64,000 bases of DNA. Origin: Aplysia californica (Eukaryota). The translations under genes were made by a program, and so were the position numbers. The stretch covers positions 890,549 to 954,548 of the forward strand of contig NW_004797413.1 of NCBI RefSeq assembly GCF_000002075.1, written 5' to 3'. The notes under the pieces are model-generated. The model made no database searches. It saw only the letters and a list, made by a program, of their open reading frames with translations, and was not told where the DNA came from. Below are positions 1,606 to 46,600 of the stretch, piece after piece. How positions within the stretch are numbered: the first letter of the stretch is position 1; each line of letters begins with the position of its first letter.

Positions 1606-2905
1606 TGTTGTTGTTGTCCTCTTCTCGACTGACCAACAAATTGTTCCCATAATTTAGACCTGCATGTTTGCCGACAATCGTCTGAAATCCGACAATCGCG
1701 ACCCGACCCACGAGCCGGCCGATGCTATCGCTAGGCTCACCTGTGTCAGCCAATGTGCGTAGTGCGAGGCCTGGCCGACTGCCAGCGCCCCCTTTTTCTC
1801 CCGTCGGCTTTGTCGGCACTTTCGTTTTCGTGCCGACTGCCGACGTCGGCGTTTCCGACATAATTGTCGGAACTTAAGTAGAAATGCGATTACGAAAAAG
1901 GACAACAACTTAAATATCTACTTTCAGTTTCGTGCTCGAGCGGCCATTTTGAATTTCGTTTGTTGACAAATTCAATTGTTCAGATCGTGTGGATTCATTC
2001 AAGTCCGACTCTCTTGTTCTAATAGAATCTAGAAATCTAGATCTAGATAAAATATATAGATCATTATAGACCTCAATGGAGGATTCATATTCCAATTCTA
2101 TTGTGTCAAACCCTGTCATAGGTTGTGCTGTAATCTTTATATTGGTAAAAATAAGCATTTCATCAGGTGCGTGAATTGTTTATGTATTTAGTAAAGATCT
2201 AGAATCTAGATCTAATCTAGATCTAGAGTCTAGACTCAGCTGAGTCCCTCTGTTCGGAATCGGATGCGGATTTCTAGTTCAAGGCCTATTCCTATTCCAA
2301 CAAGATCTAGATCTAGATTTATTTAGATAACTAGATTTCTAGATCTAGATATATATGAGCTTTTGCCAAAAGGTGGGGGTGTTTGCATGAGGACTTTTTT
2401 AATCAACCACTACTCATGGTAAAATATGTTTTCTTCTGAAAACTTTATGCATATGGCNNNNNNNNNNNNNNNNNNNNNNNNNNNNNNNNNNNNNNNNNNN
2501 NNNNNNNNNNNNNNNNNNNNNNNNNNNNNNNNNNNNNNNNNNNNNNNNNNNNNNNNNCGTAGCCATTCGTTATGTCAATCTATTTTAAGGAAAAAAGCAA
2601 TTCGAGAAAATTTGGAGTTAGACGGTTAGAATTCTGTGCCGACGATATATCACGACCTGAAGAAAGTGGAATTGTGTTGAAATTTTTTTTAAGTATTTGT
2701 AGCAAAAGCTGTAGTCGGGTGATAGTTCCAGCGTTATCACGTGATGCAGATGTAGTAAAAAATGTTTGTAGAAATATAGACTTTGGATGTTTGTATCAGA
2801 GTTATCACGTGGTCAGAATCAAACGTCCAGACCCTCAGAGCACGCGGTGACAGACAGTCAGGATGACCAGCACGGTGATACTTCCGGTCAAGGCAGCAGG
2901 ACTAC

Positions 2906-3211
2906 TTATCTGCACGCCAGTGTCTTGACGGTAACGTACTCCTTCTCGGAACAACCCGCACCCATGATTGCTTCTTTAGCTTCTGGTTTCCTGACAATCA
3001 TACAAGCTAGCGTCTGGTCATCGGGTATATGCTGTGCTACTTCCAATTGCAACACGCCAATGTAACAGCCAGCGGACACCTTGCTATGGAGCTCCTTGTT
3101 AAACCTATCGAGAAAACCTGCGTTTGGCGAACTAGGGGCGCCTGACACTGAGGCGAGAACAAGGCTGAGGCTCAGCACTGAGCACAAGACGAAAACTCTC
3201 AAGGAAACCAT
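2906..3211 (-). CDS. Uncharacterised small secreted protein, 101 aa, four Cys in mature chain (copy A)
   Basis: ATG-TAA ORF that is GC-richer than its flanks. It has a hydrophobic signal peptide ending ASVSG|AP and Cys49/70/87/100. A polypyrimidine-AG acceptor lies ~115 nt upstream of the ATG. The frame is preserved in both diverged copies. Confidence 0.72.
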   Translation of the reverse strand: MVSLRVFVLCSVLSLSLVLASVSGAPSSPNAGFLDRFNKELHSKVSAGCYIGVLQLEVAQHIPDDQTLACMIVRKPEAKEAIMGAGCSEKEYVTVKTLACR

Positions 3212-4771
3212 TCTGGTGAAGATTGCTTTGATTGGTAGGACGATACGGTGTTTTCACATTTCGTTAGGCTCTTGTCGTTGCAGGTTCTGGGTGAGGTTTT
3301 CCGCTTTTTGGCCGCGAAGGTCGTTCTGTGGGGAGGGAAACGACCATTACTAGCTGTTGGTTTTTTTAATTAGAGGTTTTACGGCGCTTGCAACTGGATT
3401 AGGTCATATGAGCGCCAGAAGATTAGAGGTGTTACAATAGAGTAACAAGCATAAAAAAAGAAGAAGGGGAGAAAAGGACGATAGATATTTCATAGGAAAG
3501 AAGAAGCAAACCACACCAGAGCACCCGCCACCCACTCGCGATTATTGGTTTGCTTTCTTTTTTCTTTTTTTTCCTCTTCAGCAAACCTATCTAGAACAGC
3601 TTCTGTGGTGTAGCGGTAACACATTTCGCCGTCTCACACAGGAGATCCTTGTTCGATTCTCGAGTAAGGAGAATTTTTATCAAGTATCTCCGTCTGTCTT
3701 ATGGGGTTCTGTATCCTAAATCAGTCCGCGGTGCCCCTGACAGACAGTGTTGCAATAATCTGTTCCCTAGAGATCTAAATTGTGTTGAAGGTGATGTAAA
3801 ACTTCTAGAGCTAACCTTATTTTCGTCATGGTGTCATTCAAGTAGACATCTCCACGCATAGCAAAGCATTTTCCCAAAGGACCAATGCCAATAGACAATT
3901 CTTGGAAAACCAGACCATATCAACGTTGGAGTAAATAGCCCCGATATGAATCCTACAGGTAAATGAAGTCCCCTGAAACAACAGCTGAAGAAAAAGTGAC
4001 TTTGCTCCCAATTCAGACCCTTTGTTTTCAAATCTCTGTGGCATTTGGGATGAATTGAGAAATAATTATGTCCAAAATTTAAAAGAGGCGATGCCCAAAG
4101 TGTTTGTGCACAACACAAATTCAATGCGTACATTAATTTAATTTTTAGTTTTGTGTGGAATTAGTTATTGTTCTGTGTTCTGTTTTGTTTGAAATCATCG
4201 TAATAAATTATTGTTTATCGCAGAGACAGATTTCCACATTCATTGGATCTGCAATGTATGTCCATTCTATCAATATTTATGCTCTTCAATACAATCGCGA
4301 AGACAATTTTACGTTTCTTTGATTTCACACACTTTTGCCAAGCCTGATTTTTTATGGTCAATTTTGGTGACCATATATCGAAAGCCCCTTAACATAGATG
4401 AAATATGAAGGTGTCAGATGTTGTAGAATTTATTAAGCTTTAAATTGGTTTGCTACATGAGTGGGTACAGCAAGGCTTTAAAACCATAANNNNNNNNNNN
4501 NNNNNNNNNNNNNNNNNNNNNNNNNNNNNNNNNNNNNNNNNNNNNNNNNNNNNNNNNNNNNNNNNNNNNNNNNNNNNNNNNNNNNNNNNNNNNNNNNNNN
4601 NNNNNNNNNNNNNNNNNNNNNNNNNNNNNNNNNNNNNNNNNNNNNNNNNNNNNNNNNNNNNNNNNNNNNNNNNNNNNNNNNNNNNNNNNNNNNNNNNNNN
4701 NNNNNNNNNNNNNNNNNNNNNNNNNNNNNNNNNNNNNNNNNNNNNNNNNNNNNNNNNNNNNNNNNNNNNNN

Positions 4772-5178
4772 GGCTCTCGTCAATGTAGAGTTATTGGTAT
4801 CATCTTAAAGCTTGTTCACTTGTCTTTATTTTGATGGAAAAAATATCCATTTATATTGAATACAAGTCGAGAAATTTGTGAAAGAAGGAGCTGGAGGTCA
4901 CTTGTTTTCATAAATAAAATTAGTGAGAAAATGGCCGCCAAAGTTTAGTTATTTCCTTAGCTTAAGAGTCCGTGGTAACTTAAAATTTACATTTTTTGTG
5001 CCTTAAATCAACACTTTTCAGAAAAATCCACTCTGAAATAGCTTTTTAATGGGCATGAATGGTGGTGAGCCAAAAACCAAAAATTTGATAAGAATTCACA
5101 AACCTGCAGAAAAATGCAAGTTTCTTCACTTAGATTAATTTGACGAGAGCCTGATTCCACCACGCTGCCTCACATATA
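4772..5178. mobile_element. MITE, same family as 23482-23926 (left end lost in gap)
   Basis: Starts ggctctcgtcaa after the gap and ends ttgacgagagcctgattccaccacgctgcctcacatata. The internal sequence aligns with 23500-23926. Confidence 0.85.
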
Positions 5179-5185
5179 TATAATA

Positions 5186-5792
5186 TAGTCCGTCCCTGTC
5201 TGTCAGGTCCAGCGTTGGCCAAGTGGGGTACAACATCCCAGTAGACAGGAGCAAATATTTATGTCCTCCGTGCAACGATTCAGAGCATGAAGGCGTCAAA
5301 AGAAGCCACACTCTAAATTTCTGCATTCTGTCCAGAGGCGTGCGACGAGATTGCAACAAGCATTATAATGCTATTTCTGAATCACCTTCTATTTCGCTGC
5401 TAAACAGAGTAATTTTTCTTGTCCAAAGTACAAAGGTTTGAATCGTGGTTAAGCAAATTTTTTTCTACATTTAACAGATAAGAAATCTATTGTTTTCACT
5501 TAATGGGTCAAAGTAGAAGCAAAGATATCTGTATAAAAAGAAGCGTTGGAGCAGTCCAGACAATACCTGACAGGGAAGCGAGGACACCAACAACAACTGC
5601 TTGATTCACCTAGTAAGTCTGTGTGTTGTGTGAGTGAGCGATGATGTGTACTACCCTTTGTAGCTTCTGGCGTCCGTGGTGCAGCGCCCATGCTCTTAAT
5701 CGTTGCACCGAAGACATGAGTATTTGCTCCTGTCTGCTGGGATGTTGTATCCCACTTAGCCAACGCTGGACCTGACAGGCAGGGGCGGACTA
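5186..5792. mobile_element. TA-flanked element with ~75-bp terminal inverted repeats
   Basis: tagtccgtccctgtctgtcaggtccagcgttggccaagtgg...agacaggagcaaata at the left and its reverse complement at 5720-5792. Followed by a (TA)n run to ~5861. Confidence 0.7.
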
Positions 5793-5803
5793 TTATATAT
5801 ATA

Positions 5804-5866
<63 letters not shown>

Positions 5867-7255
5867 CATGTATTTCTGACCATCAATGATTTATTTATAG
5901 AGGCACCAGCCATCCATGTCCAGGTGCTGTTTTAGCCTCTTTTTCCTGTATTCGGATTAATATCTTGATTCCACCATATACATTATTCTAACCACCCAAT
6001 CATGGTTTTAAAGCCTTACTGTATCAACTCATGTAGCAAACCAATTGAAAGCTAAATAGATTCTACAGCATCTGACACCTTAATATTTCATCTATGTTAA
6101 GAGGTTCCCGATATAATATGGTCACTCAAAATTGACCTAAAAAAATCAGGCTTGGCAAAAGTGTGTGAAATCAAAGAAACGTAAAATTGTCCTCGCGATT
6201 GTATTGAAGAGCATAAATATTGATAGAATGGACATACATTGCAGATCCAATGAATGTGGAAATCTGTCTCTGCGATAAACAATAATTTATTACGATGATT
6301 TCAAACAAAACAGAATACAGAACAATAACTAATTCCACATAAAACTAAAAATTAAATTAATGTACGCATTGAATTTGTGTTGTGCACAAACACTTTGGGC
6401 ATCGCCTCTTTTAAATTTTGGACATAATTATTTCTCAATTCATCCCAAATGCCACAGAGATTTGAAAACAAAGGGTCTGAATTGGGAGCAAAGTCACTTT
6501 TTCTTCAGCTGTTGTTTCAGGGGACTTCATTTACCTGTAGGATTCATATCGGGGCTATTTACTCCAACGTTGATATGGTCTGGTTTTCCAAGTATTGTCT
6601 ATTGGCATTGGTCCTTTGGGAAAATGCTTTGCTATGCGTGGAGATGTCTACTTGAATGACACCATGACGAAAATAAGGGTAGCTCTAGAAGTTTTACATC
6701 ACCTTCAAACAATTTAGATCTTTAGGGAACAAATTGTTGCAATACTGTCTGTCAGGGGCACCGCGGACTGATTTAGGATACAGCACCCCATAAAACAGAC
6801 GGAGATACTTGATAAAAATTCTCCTTACTCGAGAATCGAACTCGGATCTCCTGCGTGAGACGGCGAAATGTGTTACCGCTACACCACAGAAGCCGTTCTA
6901 GATGGGTTGACTGAAGAGAAAAAAAATAAAACAAAACAAAAAGACACACACAAAAAAACCCCAACTAGTTAGTAATCGTGGGTGGTTGGTGGGTGCTCTG
7001 GTCTGGTTTGCTTCTTCTTTCCTATGAAACATCTATCGTCCTTATCTTCCCTTCTTTTTTATGTTTGTTACTCTCTTGTAACACCTCTAATCTTCTGGTG
7101 TAAAAACCAACAACTAGTAATGGTCGTTTCCCTCCCCACAGAACGACGTTCACGGCCAAAAAGCGGAAAACCACACCCAGAACCTGCAACGACAAGAGCC
7201 TAACGAAGTGTGAAAACACCGTATCGTCCTACCAGTCAAAGCAATCTTCACCAGA

Positions 7256-7561
7256 ATGGTTTCCTTGAAGGTTTTCGTCTTGTGCTCAGTGCTGAGCCTA
7301 AGCCTTGTTCTCGCCTCAGTGTCAGGCGCCCCTAGTTCGCCAAACGCAGGTTTTCTCGCGAGGTTTAACAAGGAGCTCCATAGCAAGGTGTCCGCTGGCT
7401 GTTACATTGGCGTGTTACAATTGGAAGTAGCACAGCATATACCCGATGACCAGACGCTAGCTTGTATGATTGTCAAGAAACCAGAAGCGAAAGCTGCAAT
7501 CATGGATGCGGGTTGTTCCGAGAAGGAGTACGTTACCGTCAAGACACTGGCGTGCAGATAA
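7256..7561 (+). CDS. Uncharacterised small secreted protein, 101 aa, four Cys in mature chain (copy B)
   Basis: Inverted paralog of 2906-3211 with 5 aa differences (R5K, D35A, R74K, E80A, G84D). Acceptor ccctccccacag ends at 7141; AATAAA at ~7982. Confidence 0.75.
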   Translation: MVSLKVFVLCSVLSLSLVLASVSGAPSSPNAGFLARFNKELHSKVSAGCYIGVLQLEVAQHIPDDQTLACMIVKKPEAKAAIMDAGCSEKEYVTVKTLACR

Positions 7562-9779
7562 GTAGTCCTGCTGCCTTGACCGGAAGCATCATCGTGCTGC
7601 TCATCCTGACTGTCTGTCACCGCGTGCTCTGAGGGACTGGACGTTTGATTCTGACCACGTGATAACTCTGATACAAACATCCAAAGTCTATATTTCTACA
7701 AACGTTTTTTCTACATCTGCATCACGTGACAACGCTGGAACAATCACCCGACTACAGCTTTTGCTACACATACTTTTTCAATATATTCAACACAATTCCA
7801 CTTTCTTCAGGTCGTGATATATTTACTTATTTCTGCTTCAAATGTCTCTATCTCGTTTGAATTAGGCACAGAGGCCATGAAATCTCAACACGCTCATATT
7901 ACAAAAAAGAACAGAATCAACAGGCCTGCTATTGTTGCCACTTCTCTTTAAAACCAAACCTGAGCAGCGAACTTTCCATCAAATAAACTGTTGCACAATC
8001 GGTGGCGACACTCAAATCACTGTTGTTGTTTGAATCGAATGGAGCCTCGTGTACACTCGTTGCTTGTTTTAAGTGTTTGTTTGTTTGTTTGTTCGTCTAC
8101 TTGTTTGTTCGCCTTCAAGAGAAGGCTGACACTAATGGTGTAGTTTTCAAGCTCTTTGCTTGAAATTGAGAGACCGAGAGTTTGGTTCTCACGAGCGGGA
8201 GACGTTTTACGGAGTATGTCAGTCTCTCTGCTCGGCTGTATCATTCACTGCCTGGGTCAGTCGTGACGGACAGAGTGAAAGCAGCCCGCCTCCTAAACAG
8301 TCCTTACTATGCCGATAGGGGGAATCGTCTATTTACATTAAGTTTACAGTCATAATTGAGAAGTTCATGAAGTACAACAGAACCAGCGTCTGTGGTGTTG
8401 CGGGTAGATTCTTTTCCCGTGGTACACTGAAGGTGTGAACTTGATGCCCAAATGAGGGAGACATTTTTTACATTGAGTATCTCCGTCGTGTTAAAGAATT
8501 CCTGTGGGTGGTTGGAGGGGGCTCTGGTGTGGTTTGCTTCTTTTTTCCTATGAAACATCTATCGTCATTATCTCCCCTTCTTCTTTTTAATGTTTGTTAC
8601 TCTCTTGTCCGAGTTCGAGCCTCGGTACGGACACGAATTTTTTTCTCCCCTTCCAGCCCACCAAGCAGTAATGGGTAAATGACACGTTGAAATAAATAAT
8701 TGACCTGTTCAACTGGTCCAAATGGGGGTCGGGCATTACGCCAACTGGTCCAAAAGGGGTGCAACCATCTTGTTGGGGTGTTGTATCCCTCTCACCCCCG
8801 TTGGCCCTGACAGGAAGCGTGGAAGCAGCCCGCCTCCATAATATCTAACTCTATATTGTGGTGATGGGGGCGTACAACACTTCCAATGACGCTTTATTTC
8901 TCAGAGGAAACACCAGTTAGTGACATAGGAAATAGAACACAGCAGCTGAAGACAACCCTCACTAACCCCCAACATCNNNNNNNNNNNNNNNNNNNNNNNN
9001 NNNNNNNNNNNNNNNNNNNNNNNNNNNNNNNNNNNNNNNNNNNNNNNNNNNNNNNNNNNNNNNNNNNNNNNNNNNNNNNNNNNNNNNNNNNNNNNNNNNN
9101 NNNNNNNNNNNNNNNNNNNNNNNNNNNNNNNNNNNNNNNNNNNNNNNNNNNNNNNNNNNNNNNNNNNNCAAAACATTATATAAAAGTATGTCTATATAAT
9201 AAACATAAATAGATCTAGGTATAATTATTATACTTCTATTTTTTTTAAAAACTAGATCTAATATGTGATATGTAGATAAAACTACCTGTATTCGTTATCT
9301 ATTTCTTCGGAGCCCACTCAGGTAGTGTCCAATCAAGACTTTATCACCCGTAACTCAAAAAAAATTAGAGGAAACTGAGACATATTTTGTCGGACGTTCC
9401 TAGAGCATAGTAGAGAGCTGGGCCTTTATAGAACTGAGAGAAAAAGTTTTGTACTTACTGCTCTCAGTCTTATCCTTCTTACAGTATTTCTCTGGTTAGT
9501 TCATGGACACTTCATGTTAATCGCGCAAATCCGTGTTACAATCATTGTTCTATGTGCTTTACATGATACAGGCATACACACATACGTGCACATAATAATA
9601 TTTTTACATGCAGTTCTACATTCAGTAAAAAATAACAGAGTAAACAATTCCAAATAAAAATAATGAATACACTCTTTCTAACTAATAAGAAAAAAATGTA
9701 GACTCATGTCAATGTCAAAAGCACCTTGTAATGAAACAAATTGCAGTGGAATTCTGATAAAGTCAACACCTCGGGACCG

Positions 9780-23481: not shown

Positions 23482-23926
23482 TATATGTGAGGCAGCGTGG
23501 TGGAATCAGGCTCTCGTCAATTTTGGGGCATGTAGAGCAATTGGTATCATCTTAAAGCTTGTTCACTTGTCTCTATTTGGATGAAAAAAATATCCATTTA
23601 TCTAGAATAAAAGTTGAGATATTGCGAATGAAGGAGGTGGGGGTCACCTGTTGTCAGAGGTAAAATTAGAGAGAAAATGGCCGCCAAAGATTAATTATTT
23701 CCTAGCTTAAGAGTCCGTGGGAACTGAAAATTTAAATTTTTTGTACCTTTAATCAACGTTTTTCAGAAAAAATTCACACAGAAATGAGTTTTTTTAATGG
23801 GCACGAAAGGTGTTGAGCCAAAAAACAAAAATTCCATAAAAATTCACAAACCTGCGGAAAAATGCAAGTCTCTTCATTTTGATTATTTTGACGAGAGCCT
23901 GATTCCTCCACGCTGCCTCACATATA
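23482..23926. mobile_element. TA-flanked MITE with ~40-bp TIRs (Tc1/mariner-type target)
   Basis: tatatgtgaggcagcgtggtggaatcaggctctcgtcaa ... ttgacgagagcctgattcctccacgctgcctcacatata. Second copy at 4772-5178. Confidence 0.88.
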
Positions 23927-43618: not shown

Positions 43619-46600
43619 ATGAATCCCCAACGGAGCTCAACGACTTCTGTAGGTGTGGACAGCTCTCCCACGGAGAGGACCGGACTAATGAGTAACCTGA
43701 CAGGCGGGGAGTGGGCGGGGGAGAGTGGGAACTTCTCTCCGGTCCGCCGCTACTCTGCCGCGGACGATGAGGCCACGACGGTGCCAGAGGTACAGCAGGC
43801 TGTGTGTGTGTTCGTGCGTGTGTTGGTGGGGGGGGGGGGGGGTGGGTTGTTTGTTCGTGTGTGTGTTTCTGTGGGTGGGTGTACGCATGCGTGTGTGTGT
43901 GTTGCATCTCAGCTCAGTGTCTGCTTATCCTTCACGTTGACTGTTTCATTTACTTTTTGATCTAGTATTTTTTATTTAGAATTGTTTGATTACACTACTA
44001 TTTTTCCCATTATGTTCTGTTCTCACAACTGGCAGTCCCTTCTTTTAAATTGTTTCCTTTTACTCTACTCTTCCTATTCATTCTCCCTTTTCACTTTTTT
44101 GGTATACATTTCGACTCAAAACCAAAGAGCTAATCTTATAAGAATCTTTTCTTTCTCTTTTTTTGTTTGTTTGTTCCACATACGAGAACTCAAGGGTAGT
44201 GAACTGTAGGTTATTCAACACCCAATGAAGCTGATTTTTGTATGTATAATAACGTGCTTTTTTTTCTCAAATCAAGAGGGTTTTATCGTTCCGCTGTCAG
44301 ACCGCAGTTTTTGAAGATGCTTTTTAAAGATGGGTATTCGTGCTGATGAGAGTCTCTGCAGTTTTATAAGACCTATTTTTTTATAAGTTCTGTGAAACTT
44401 AAAAAACTTTTTTTTAAACTAAGGTGGGGGGGTCAAAGTTTGTATTTGTATTTTAACAAGTAATTCTCCCCCCTCCCTCTTTCATCCCCCTGCTTCAGAC
44501 ATCAGTGGTGACCCCCTCGACCAACAGCACAACAAACCAGCAGCCGCAAAGTCAGAGAACGCGGCGCGGCGAAGGGTCTCAAAATAGATCTGACGGTGAT
44601 GGAGCGGCGGCCACCCGTGGTGGCGGTGCCCAGCCAGCTGCTGCTGCGAGGCAGGAGGCGGGGAGAGGGAGCGGAGAGGCGGTGTCGGGGCAGCAGGAAG
44701 AGGAGGACGACGGGGAAGAGACGCTTCTGTACGGGGCCAAGCACGTCATCATGCTGTTTGTCCCCGTCACGCTGTGTATGGTGGTGGTGGTCGCGACCAT
44801 CAGTTCCATCACGTACTACACCACGAAGGGAACCTATTTGTAAGTTGTTCACGCCGCGCTAGCTCTGGCCCTTTTTTTTTCTTTTTTCCTTCTCTGCTGC
44901 AGAAGTCGCTATCTGTTTTTGTTTTTTTTCTTCCATACTTTAGTTATCTTGTCTTTTAACTTGATAATAGTTGGGTTATGCGTGTGTATTTCTTGTCTGT
45001 ACATTCCATACCACAACAAAGTTGGGTTATTGTGGTGTATATTTCCTGTCAGTACATTCTTTTCCATATTAAGAGTTGGGCTGTGTATGTGTGTCTTCTC
45101 CATGTGTGCAAGCTAAAAAAAAACTTTTGGGACAAGAGTTGGGTTATGTGTGTGTATTTCCCCAGCATGTACAAGTGTTGGGTTATTTGTGTGTATACTG
45201 TATTTCCCCAGTCTGTACAAGTGTTGGGTTATTTGTGTGTATACTGTATTTCCCCAGTCTGTACAAGTGTTGGGTTATGTGTGTGTATTTCCCCAGTCTG
45301 TACAAGTGTTGGGTTATGTGTGTGTATTTCCCCAGTCTGTACAAGTGTTGGGTTATGTGTGTGTATTTCCCCAGCCTGTACAAGTGTTTGGTTATGTGTG
45401 TGTATACTGTATTTCCCCAGTCTGTACAAAGAGTTGGGTTATGTATGTGTATACTGTATTTCCCCAGTCTGTACAAGTGTTGGGTTATGTGTGTGTATAC
45501 TGTATTTCCGCAGTCTGTACACCCCATTCCATGACAAGTGTTAGGTAATGTGTGTGTATTTTCGCTGTCTGTACACAAGTTGGGTTATGTGTGTGTATAC
45601 TGTATTTCTCCAGCCTGTACTAGTGTTAGGTTATGTGTGTGTATTTCCGCAGCCTGTACACAAGTTGGCTTATGTGTGAGCATTTCCGCAGTCTGTACAA
45701 GTGTTAGGTTATGTGTGTGTATTTCCGCAGCCTGTACACACGTGTTGGGTTATGTGTGTGTATTTCCGCAGTCTGTTCCACTGTTGTACCTCTGTTTCAT
45801 GACTTTATGTTGGGTTATGTATGTGTATACTGTATTTCCCCGGCGTGTACACAAGTTGGGTTATGTATGTGTATACTGTATTTCCCCGCGACCAAGCTGT
45901 GGCAGTCTATGGCTTTATGTTGGGTTATATATGTGTATACTGTATTTCCCCAGTCTGTACACAAGTTGGGTTATGTGTATGTATACTGTATTTCCCCGCG
46001 ACCAAGCTGTGGCAGTCTATGGCTTTCTGTTGGGTTATGTGTGTGTATACTGTATTTCCGCAGCCTGTACACCCCGTTCCACGACAAGACGGAAGACACC
46101 GGGACCAAGCTGTGGCAGTCTATGGCCAACGCCCTCATCCTGCTGGGCGCTATCATCGTCATGACCATCGTTCTCCTGCTCCTCTACAAGTACGAGTGCT
46201 ACAAGGTCAGGAACAAACTATAAATAGAAACAGCAAATTGTTTTTCGTTCTCCTGCCCCTCTACAAGTATGAGTGCTACAATAGTTCTTTTTTTTTTTCC
46301 TATGAAACATCTGTTTTCCTTATCTCTCTCCTCCTTCTTTTCTTTGTATGTTACTCTCTAGTAACAGATCTAATCTTTCATCTGTGGCACTTATGTGATC
46401 TCACTCTGTTGCAAGTGCTGATCTTATTTAGTTCACAGGTATAAACTGCTTTTAAATGTAAAAAACTCCAAAGAACTTGTTGACTTAAGAAAAAGCATAT
46501 TTCGTGTTTGTGTGTGTGTGCATGTGTGTACGTGGTGAAACACCAAACCAATGTGCGAGGGTCTGGACAATAAAGAGGTATCTTATCTTATCAGGTATGG

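Follow-up and report, generated by a model that had tools for sequence, protein, structure and literature searches.

Loss of an anchor-like tail by a five-base insertion behind the last cysteine codon of a probably secreted helical protein of Aplysia californica

Results

In the stretch of 64,000 nucleotides of Aplysia californica DNA analysed here (the window), two divergently oriented open reading frames (ORFs) each encode a small four-cysteine protein which probably became a secreted molecule upon losing a hydrophobic, anchor-like tail. The event is readable as a 5-base insertion lying directly behind the last cysteine codon (7556..7560, plus strand, in copy B; 2907-2911, minus strand, in copy A), which supplies an arginine codon and a stop and is not found in the paralogs. 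It is common to all three copies of this contig (3/3 C143 copies, that is, A, B and a third copy situated outside the window). Because the stop falls immediately after the last cysteine, secretion is predicted for the 8-kDa domain.

The tail is absent from the window proteins and is present there as out-of-frame DNA, namely at 7561..7632 (plus strand), now the 3' untranslated region of copy B, and at 2835-2906 (minus strand) in copy A. When read in its old frame, the copy B segment yields a hydrophobic tail of 23 residues, 20 of which are as in the C801 paralog, one of two such genes located elsewhere in the Aplysia genome. A hydrophobic, GPI-signal-like tail of 23 residues terminates every close paralog that we found in the Aplysia genome at non-C143 loci (5/5), with a best 15-residue hydropathy of 2.5-2.6 in 4/4 paralogs. 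Read-through of the stop in the window genes would add five residues and no tail, and the tail-less contigs contained no splice joint inside exon 2. The original prediction had missed this leftover tail, which follows the stop in another frame.

In a study of GPI signals, the criterion given is a hydrophobic stretch that begins at about omega+10 and continues as far as the C-terminus (10.1101/838680). The paralogs show such a stretch, Ile110 standing at +10 from Cys100. Candidate omega residues are Cys100, with Ser at +2, and Ser/Gly101, with Pro at +2; the preceding residues belong to the last helix and provide no polar linker, which makes the omega region imperfect for GPI attachment. We consider it likely that the tailed relatives are GPI-anchored.

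Both ORFs were recovered at the predicted length and on opposite strands: copy A at 2906..3211 (minus strand; 101 amino acids, intact) and copy B at 7256..7561 (plus strand; 101 amino acids, comprising a hydrophobic leader at residues 1-24 and a four-cysteine helical domain of 77 residues). The two proteins (8.3 kDa) differ at five residues only. Their mature cysteines, at positions 49, 70, 87 and 100, display the anticipated 20-16-12 spacing (C-x20-C-x16-C-x12-C). Hydropathy is high at the N-terminus (best 15-residue mean, 2.7), and cleavage after residue 24, as had been proposed, fits (V-S-G|A), as does cleavage after residue 25; the proteins are probably secreted. A single dibasic site (74-75) occurs in the window proteins and none in two single-domain paralogs, which rules out a neuropeptide precursor with repeated peptides between basic sites and agrees with the non-neuropeptide layout initially described.

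The structure model of the window protein is all-helical, with five helices (pLDDT 89.6), in keeping with the helical nature first suggested. The three-finger fold is beta-stranded, and LY6/three-finger membership is ruled out by this model. Database comparisons likewise showed the lack of a match in Pfam and the PDB. In detail, (i) Pfam gave no match for the window proteins, the paralogs or the wider family described below, one search returning scattered, repeat-driven matches only, and neither neuritin, DUF1397 and DUF19 profiles nor, in the window proteins, a SAM profile matched; (ii) PDB sequences gave no match (best E 0.016), nor did Foldseek with the window and family models; (iii) VIA-align reached best Z values of 5.3 and 6.0, a lack of match that says nothing on fold novelty, and the SAM comparison (best Z 5.3, rmsd 2.3, 59 aligned residues, 5% identity) was level with unrelated bundles; (iv) the best Atlas (language-model) scores were 0.83 and 0.82, for a bar of 0.9; (v) these loci were not among the hits of genome searches with PF15056 and PF01579 (neuritin and DUF19); (vi) word-indexed homologue searches found no match, except LOC101861323 from one of them; and (vii) 6 of the 7 proteins were absent from the exact-sequence collection. 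Literature searches under the identifiers of the family found no paper on it.

Profile searches, by comparison, linked the window domain to a euthyneuran family without a name in Aplysia, Biomphalaria, Physella and Lymnaea, so that the protein is not an orphan. Profile-profile comparison with this family gave an E value of 5e-5 (probability 67) with all four cysteines aligned; 7 of 8 C886 domains outscored at least 199/200 cysteine-fixed shuffles, and the reciprocal hit was obtained as well. When 73 domains taken from 19 hits were combined into a profile, six window and paralog domains scored above 500/500 cysteine-fixed shuffles, a result that is partly circular, since these hits came from a profile containing window and paralog domains. 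The family pattern is C-x6-C-x16-C-x10/14-C-x6-C-x12-C, of which the window form has 4/6 cysteines, the second and fourth being missing. Judged by sequence, the window form is a derived subfamily of this six-cysteine helical repeat family. A domain tree did not separate the three Aplysia subgroups. The family domain was also modelled as a helical bundle (pLDDT 92.2), and fold searches with the window and family domains had 20/50 rows in common (counted by eye).

Members of the family include Aplysia LOC101861323 and LOC118477136, Biomphalaria LOC106077440, Physella LOC131944988, Lymnaea CAL1542506, and a Biomphalaria "G surface protein, allelic form 156-like", all of these names being automatic. 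They are long repeat proteins, in which the number of domains reaches about 25, and share with the window form a homologous domain, a leader peptide and a conserved terminal C-x12-C; the window form, in contrast, has one domain, four cysteines and no tail. Since the family occurs in at least four snail genera, the term "lineage-specific" fails for the domain and stands only for the four-cysteine, tail-less form. Among 28 further profile hits, 16 carry an anchor-like tail according to a fixed rule, including Biomphalaria, Physella and Lymnaea proteins, while 5 stop 1-12 residues past the last cysteine and are either truncated or tail-less. Because 5/5 Aplysia paralogs and 16/28 snail hits are tailed, the anchor appears to be ancestral and subsequently lost.

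The ORFs lie within mirrored arms (2645-4487 and 6002-7822; 91.5% identity over 1,873 columns, 82 of them gap columns), consistent with the inverted duplication first reported. The inversion extends further inward, 5174-5289 being the mirror of 5689-5804, and its centre was placed near 5475-5500 (5474..5502). Copy B, on the plus strand, retains a TATA box (5532) and a non-coding exon 1 (5532..5612, with a GT donor at 5613), a GT...AG intron (5613..7140) and exon 2 (7141..8011, end approximate) with an AATAAA poly(A) signal at 7982; some 30-60 bases of ancestral sequence are left upstream of its TATA box. In copy A, on the minus strand, none of the TATA box, the first exon and the poly(A) signal is present. 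Its left arm (2645..4487, minus strand), consisting of exon 2 and the distal intron, ends 190 bases before the poly(A) region and is fused to a piece of a 228-bp repeat unit (2558-2650); a high-copy element with inverted ends (4783..5187, unstranded) sits at a TA site of its intron. The proximal intron piece (5174..5289, minus strand) is followed by a far-upstream piece (5294..5478, minus strand; about -2,200 to -1,970 relative to the paralog's TATA box), which abuts intron position about +160, the 2.1 kb that carries TATA box, exon 1 and donor being deleted. Copy A is a promoterless duplicate and likely silent; of the two, the working gene is probably copy B.

A third, near-identical copy was found 10 kb upstream of the window, with 97.1% identity to the copy B region over 2,334 bases and a different upstream region; it may be an allele of B. 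The "pair of genes" undergoing copy-number expansion was therefore overstated, as promoter, exon 1 and poly(A) end are gone from copy A and the third copy may not be a separate gene, although several copies do exist. That the pair itself would be an assembly artefact, representing alleles of one gene, is very improbable. Arm A, flanked by N stretches (2458-2557 and 4490-4771), and the third copy each lie on short N-bounded pieces, the third copy closely resembles B, and haplotypes of the sequencing runs appear recombined between the two. However, the spacer that contains the inverted intron piece and the two junctions is free of N, and it is bridged by contigs from two further runs, namely X1 (5183-5367, with 0 other letters, and 5338-5538, the latter spanning the inversion centre) and X16 (5259-5513, spanning both the centre and the junction of the far-upstream piece). 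Moreover, X1 contains both A-type and B-type pieces. Only B and the third copy may be related as alleles. The X1 depths are inconsistent as a measure of copy number (137-210 for B-type pieces; 54-77 for junction and A-type pieces).

The analysis of reads covered 8 of 24 listed runs, five of which were called RNA-like from coverage alone and are not on record as RNA. All five (X7, X13, X3, X16 and X5) yielded tail-less contigs that run through the insertion ungapped, of B type or third-copy type in every case. In X3, depth was 1,567 on the exon and about 0-1 on the intron, while the DNA-like run X1 covers both. An X7 contig joins the paralog's version of exon 1 to the acceptor at 7141, and contigs of X3, X5 and X16 end at the equivalent acceptor; no contig joined the window's own exon 1 to exon 2, exon 1 being uncovered in X3 and X5. 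Expression of copy B is putative, because it is the third copy that the contigs of greatest depth match (30/30 listed sites in X3) and B-type sites were seen only in X16 and X5, X16 being a mosaic. The recorded RNA runs X23 and X24 (about 15 million reads each) had zero reads on the gene. No A-type contig appeared in the five RNA-like runs. This bears on the idea of an inversion switch, whereby recombination between the arms would bring copy A to lie downstream of the lone promoter and exon 1. The single exon 1 on C143, set between mirrored intron pieces, is what such a switch would need; yet A is without both a contig and a poly(A) region, a deletion with inverted duplication accounts for the layout, and the A and B proteins differ by no more than five residues. 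We regard this idea as scarcely credible.

Divergence of the mature domain has been about twice as rapid as that of the intron. At second codon positions 20-22/76 differ, while the intron value is 12% (p about 0.001); for the pair of C801 genes the figures are 9/76 and 32/941 (p 0.002). Classical dN/dS was 0.86-0.99 versus C801 and 1.97 between the C801 genes, the latter not significant (p 0.25), and fourfold sites were also raised in 2/4 comparisons. Such divergence could stem from gene conversion by an older, unseen paralog instead of selection acting on a binding surface: differences are spread about evenly over the three codon positions (22/20/19 of 76), fourfold sites versus C801b differ at 5-6 of 16-17, and the assembly contains many N stretches. 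Nevertheless, the C801 pair combines its raised second positions with fourfold differences at only 2/30, and genome searches found no closer donor, making conversion an unlikely driver.

A dN/dS near 1 versus C801 would also be expected had the insertion been a loss-of-function frameshift, with the C143 clade now decaying and transcribed without a job. The promoterless copy A, the loss of most of the upstream region of B, and the repeats and rearrangements filling the locus point the same way. Against decay, the 306-base ORF shows neither gap nor stop between A and B, versus 8 gap events in the remainder of the arms, the four cysteines and 13 other positions are conserved across five domains, second positions are above, not equal to, the intron rate, and the X3 and X7 contigs are deep. 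We judge decay to be quite improbable.

Discussion

On balance, we favour an account in which the ancestor would have been a snail helical cysteine-rich protein ending in a likely GPI-type anchor; the 5-base insertion created a stop behind the last cysteine, so that the 8-kDa domain would be released; and the freed domain, soluble and fast-evolving, would serve in recognition or as a decoy, encoded by a probably working copy B, copy A being a probably silent duplicate. Its role might be to bind surfaces, foreign or conspecific, in mucus or body fluid, the kind of ligand that its anchored relatives would bind, though we would not press the point. More tentatively still, the locus could represent a member of an undescribed heterobranch family of tethered all-helical recognition modules (1 to about 25 per protein) that is turning into a soluble effector or signal with a diversifying binding surface. 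This extracellular domain family without a name is common to Aplysia, Lymnaea and the schistosome host Biomphalaria, and no Pfam model or solved fold was found for it.

Neuritin is a small helical GPI protein. Neuritin (PF15056; 0.76) and DUF1397 (PF07165; 0.82) are weak language-model neighbours of a tailed paralog, below the 0.9 bar, and a lead only.

Rapid divergence is common among reproductive proteins, and the fast divergence of the mature domain would suit a gamete-recognition protein or a water-borne or contact pheromone. As those are described in PMC3484142, the window protein resembles attractin, enticin, temptin and seductin, from the same genus, in being small, with a single product behind a signal peptide and disulfides; its uneven expression among runs adds to the likeness. 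Attractin, however, has 58 residues and three disulfides in that source, versus 77 residues and four cysteines here, so that an attractin-type pheromone is rejected, in line with the cysteine mismatch noted at the outset. There is also no sequence match to the Aplysia pheromones, and the relatives are long tethered repeat proteins. A pheromone or gamete-recognition role is accordingly improbable, and we retain a recognition or decoy function as the preferred reading. The GRC and PTC2 clusters of Biomphalaria encode membrane proteins proposed for parasite recognition (PMC8861042); the analogy is one of role only and no homology is claimed.

Anchor loss is a known route from the cell surface to secretion. 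In the LY6/uPAR family (PMC10421932), a stop before the membrane-anchoring region gave rise to secreted forms, SLURP and three-finger toxins, which then diversified, and both there and in the window a tethered cysteine-rich domain would have been made secreted by a stop before the anchor. The folds are unrelated, and no toxin activity is shown or implied for the window protein. While the LY6 case is reconstructed across deep time, in the window the lost anchor is still readable in the 3' untranslated region. A laboratory animal thus carries, in one genome, the insertion that caused the loss, an intact remnant of the anchor and sister genes of the tethered kind, and the anchor-loss route is therefore directly testable here.

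Gene copies and their close paralogs

Re-examination of the sequence bore out the original prediction of two 101-aa ORFs with 20-16-12 cysteine spacing (copy A, 2906-3211, minus strand; copy B, 7256-7561, plus strand) set in inverted arms (2645-4487 and 6002-7822). The encoded proteins differ at 5 residues. A genome search located a third copy, 98% identical, 10 kb upstream of the window on the same contig (C143), as well as five further loci on two other Aplysia contigs, C801 and C113. The latter comprise two single-domain paralogs of 123 aa each, two two-domain paralogs with a Thr-rich stretch (277-279 aa), and a three-domain locus (L008, L010; G000:C113:16281-17406) with an apparent frameshift within a run of A bases and its last cysteine replaced by Phe, either a pseudogene or an assembly error.

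Copy B (plus strand throughout) has a TATA box at 5532, followed by exon 1, which is non-coding; its GT-AG intron spans 5613-7140, and exon 2 carries the poly(A) signal AATAAA at 7982. The exon 1-exon 2 splice was seen in a contig of sequencing run X7, with the paralog's exon 1. Only 30-60 bases of ancestral sequence precede this TATA box, and the third copy retains the ancestral upstream region as far as an N stretch of fitting size. In copy A (minus strand), a far-upstream piece is joined directly to the intron at about +160, with deletion of 2.1 kb including the TATA box, exon 1 and the donor; its 3' end is equivalent to 7822, where a repeat is joined, and no poly(A) signal occurs there in the visible letters. 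The head-to-head layout is real, since contigs of runs X1 and X16 span both central junctions. Copy B and the third copy may represent either two alleles of one gene or two paralogous genes.

A 228-bp unit occurs in 4 copies, 98% alike, at 380-1295, and a further piece (2558-2650) adjoins copy A where its 3' end is truncated. A high-copy element with inverted ends lies at 4783-5187, at a TA site of copy A's intron, and again at 23483-23925; in the C801 paralogs it occupies the same TA site of the intron but is oriented the other way with respect to the gene, and it is absent from copy B. Elsewhere, the window contains presenilin exons (44457-46223, plus strand; a single exon matches PF01080 with E 7e-8, which stays below the cut-off), a tandem array inside that region repeating pieces of the next exon boundary (44960-46100), and a long tandem repeat of about 60-base units with three frames kept open (53075-54356).

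Loss of a likely anchor tail

All five C801/C113 paralogs terminate in a 23-residue tail of small residues followed by a hydrophobic stretch. The hydrophobic stretch agrees with the rule given in 10.1101/838680, the omega region only partly; the tail may serve either as a signal for GPI attachment or as a short helix in the membrane. In a DNA alignment, each of the three C143 copies still carries the paralogs' tail sequence after its stop codon; 5 inserted bases, which read Arg-stop, have shifted it, and in its old frame it retains 20 of the 23 paralog residues. The insertion is not a sequencing error, since contigs from five runs align across it with no gap. The anchor tail was lost through one insertion, and the inverted duplication and the decapitation of copy A came later.

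Expression

None of the runs listed as containing the gene is recorded as RNA, "RNA-like" being assigned by contig coverage. In the five RNA-like runs, from five studies, contigs span exon 2 and end at or near the acceptor, while those of the DNA-like run (X1) continue past it. The X3 contig shows 35 differences and 2 gaps relative to copy A, as predicted for the third copy, whose type it matches at 30/30 listed sites; X7 and X13 contigs are third-copy-like, and B-type sites are present in X16 and X5. On window 7201-7721, X13, which bears a second organism label, covers the tail-less form to a depth of 7, and pieces of tailed paralogs to depths in the thousands. No A-type contig was found among the five RNA-like runs; because contigs lose rare variants, the probable silence of copy A rests mainly on its gene anatomy. 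In two recorded RNA runs the gene is free of reads, which points to restricted expression.

Divergence of the mature domain

Between C143 and C801, 27-31% of bases differ in the mature region, 6-19% in the leader, old tail and UTRs, and 12% in the intron. At second codon positions divergence is higher than in the intron (p about 0.001; in the comparison of the two C801 genes, p 0.002), classical dN/dS is 0.86-0.99 against C801 and 1.97, not significant, between C801 genes, and divergence at fourfold sites is partly raised. Diversifying selection acting on a putative binding surface is more probable here than gene conversion with an unseen donor.

A six-cysteine snail family

Weak recurrent matches led to two intronless genes on contig C886 (L045, G000:C886:275365-280317; L046, 285998-287992). 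Both encode a leader, tandem six-cysteine domains (6 in one gene, at least 14 in the other) separated by linkers of Thr, Gln and Pro, and a short apolar C-terminus; a 478-aa piece of this material is in RefSeq as LOC118477136. Evidence that the four-cysteine domain is related to these domains comes from profile comparison (E 5e-5), shuffle tests (7 of 8 C886 domains), a reciprocal match, and similar, helical predicted models. The two cysteines absent from the window form probably pair, as they were lost together. The six-cysteine domain also has a weaker relative, probably spliced, on contig C186 (L067; G000:C186:634506-634715).

Searching 1.84 billion representatives with a joint profile yielded 29 matches, 28 of them new; ten were looked up, six being named but uncharacterised proteins of Aplysia, Biomphalaria, Physella and Lymnaea, and four being without name. 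Among the 28, an anchor-like tail follows 15-45 residues past the last cysteine pair in 16, two fall one residue outside the length rule, a further two carry weaker tails, another two are fragment-like, five end within 12 residues of the last cysteine, and one, without the motif, is probably false. This distribution argues that the tail is ancestral and the tail-less window form derived. The five short-ended members (P0016, P0021, P0030, P0031 and P0035; termini 1-12 residues beyond the last cysteine) are either fragments or independent anchor losses. P0010, a 2,044-aa protein with an automatic name only, from the schistosome host snail Biomphalaria glabrata, has about 25 tandem modules, a leader and an anchor-like tail. 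A literature search by locus identifier found no papers.

Proposed mechanism and comparison with known systems

Overall, we consider the window protein a real, derived and probably secreted variant of a putative snail surface-protein family apparently not described before. Its relatives would be displayed at the cell surface, with binding modules that occur singly or in tandem; the domain without the tail would enter the secretory path, fold as a two-disulfide five-helix bundle and then be released. Tentatively, it might bind the same partner class as its relatives, as a soluble sensor or decoy. The two main alternatives are a pheromone role for the released domain, which seems unlikely, and decay of the tail-less genes, which appears still less probable. 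By comparison with PMC3484142, the window protein is not an attractin, and weak resemblances to neuritin and SAM serve as leads only. The proposed route works like that from LY6 to SLURP and three-finger proteins described in PMC10421932, but the window protein does not belong to that family.
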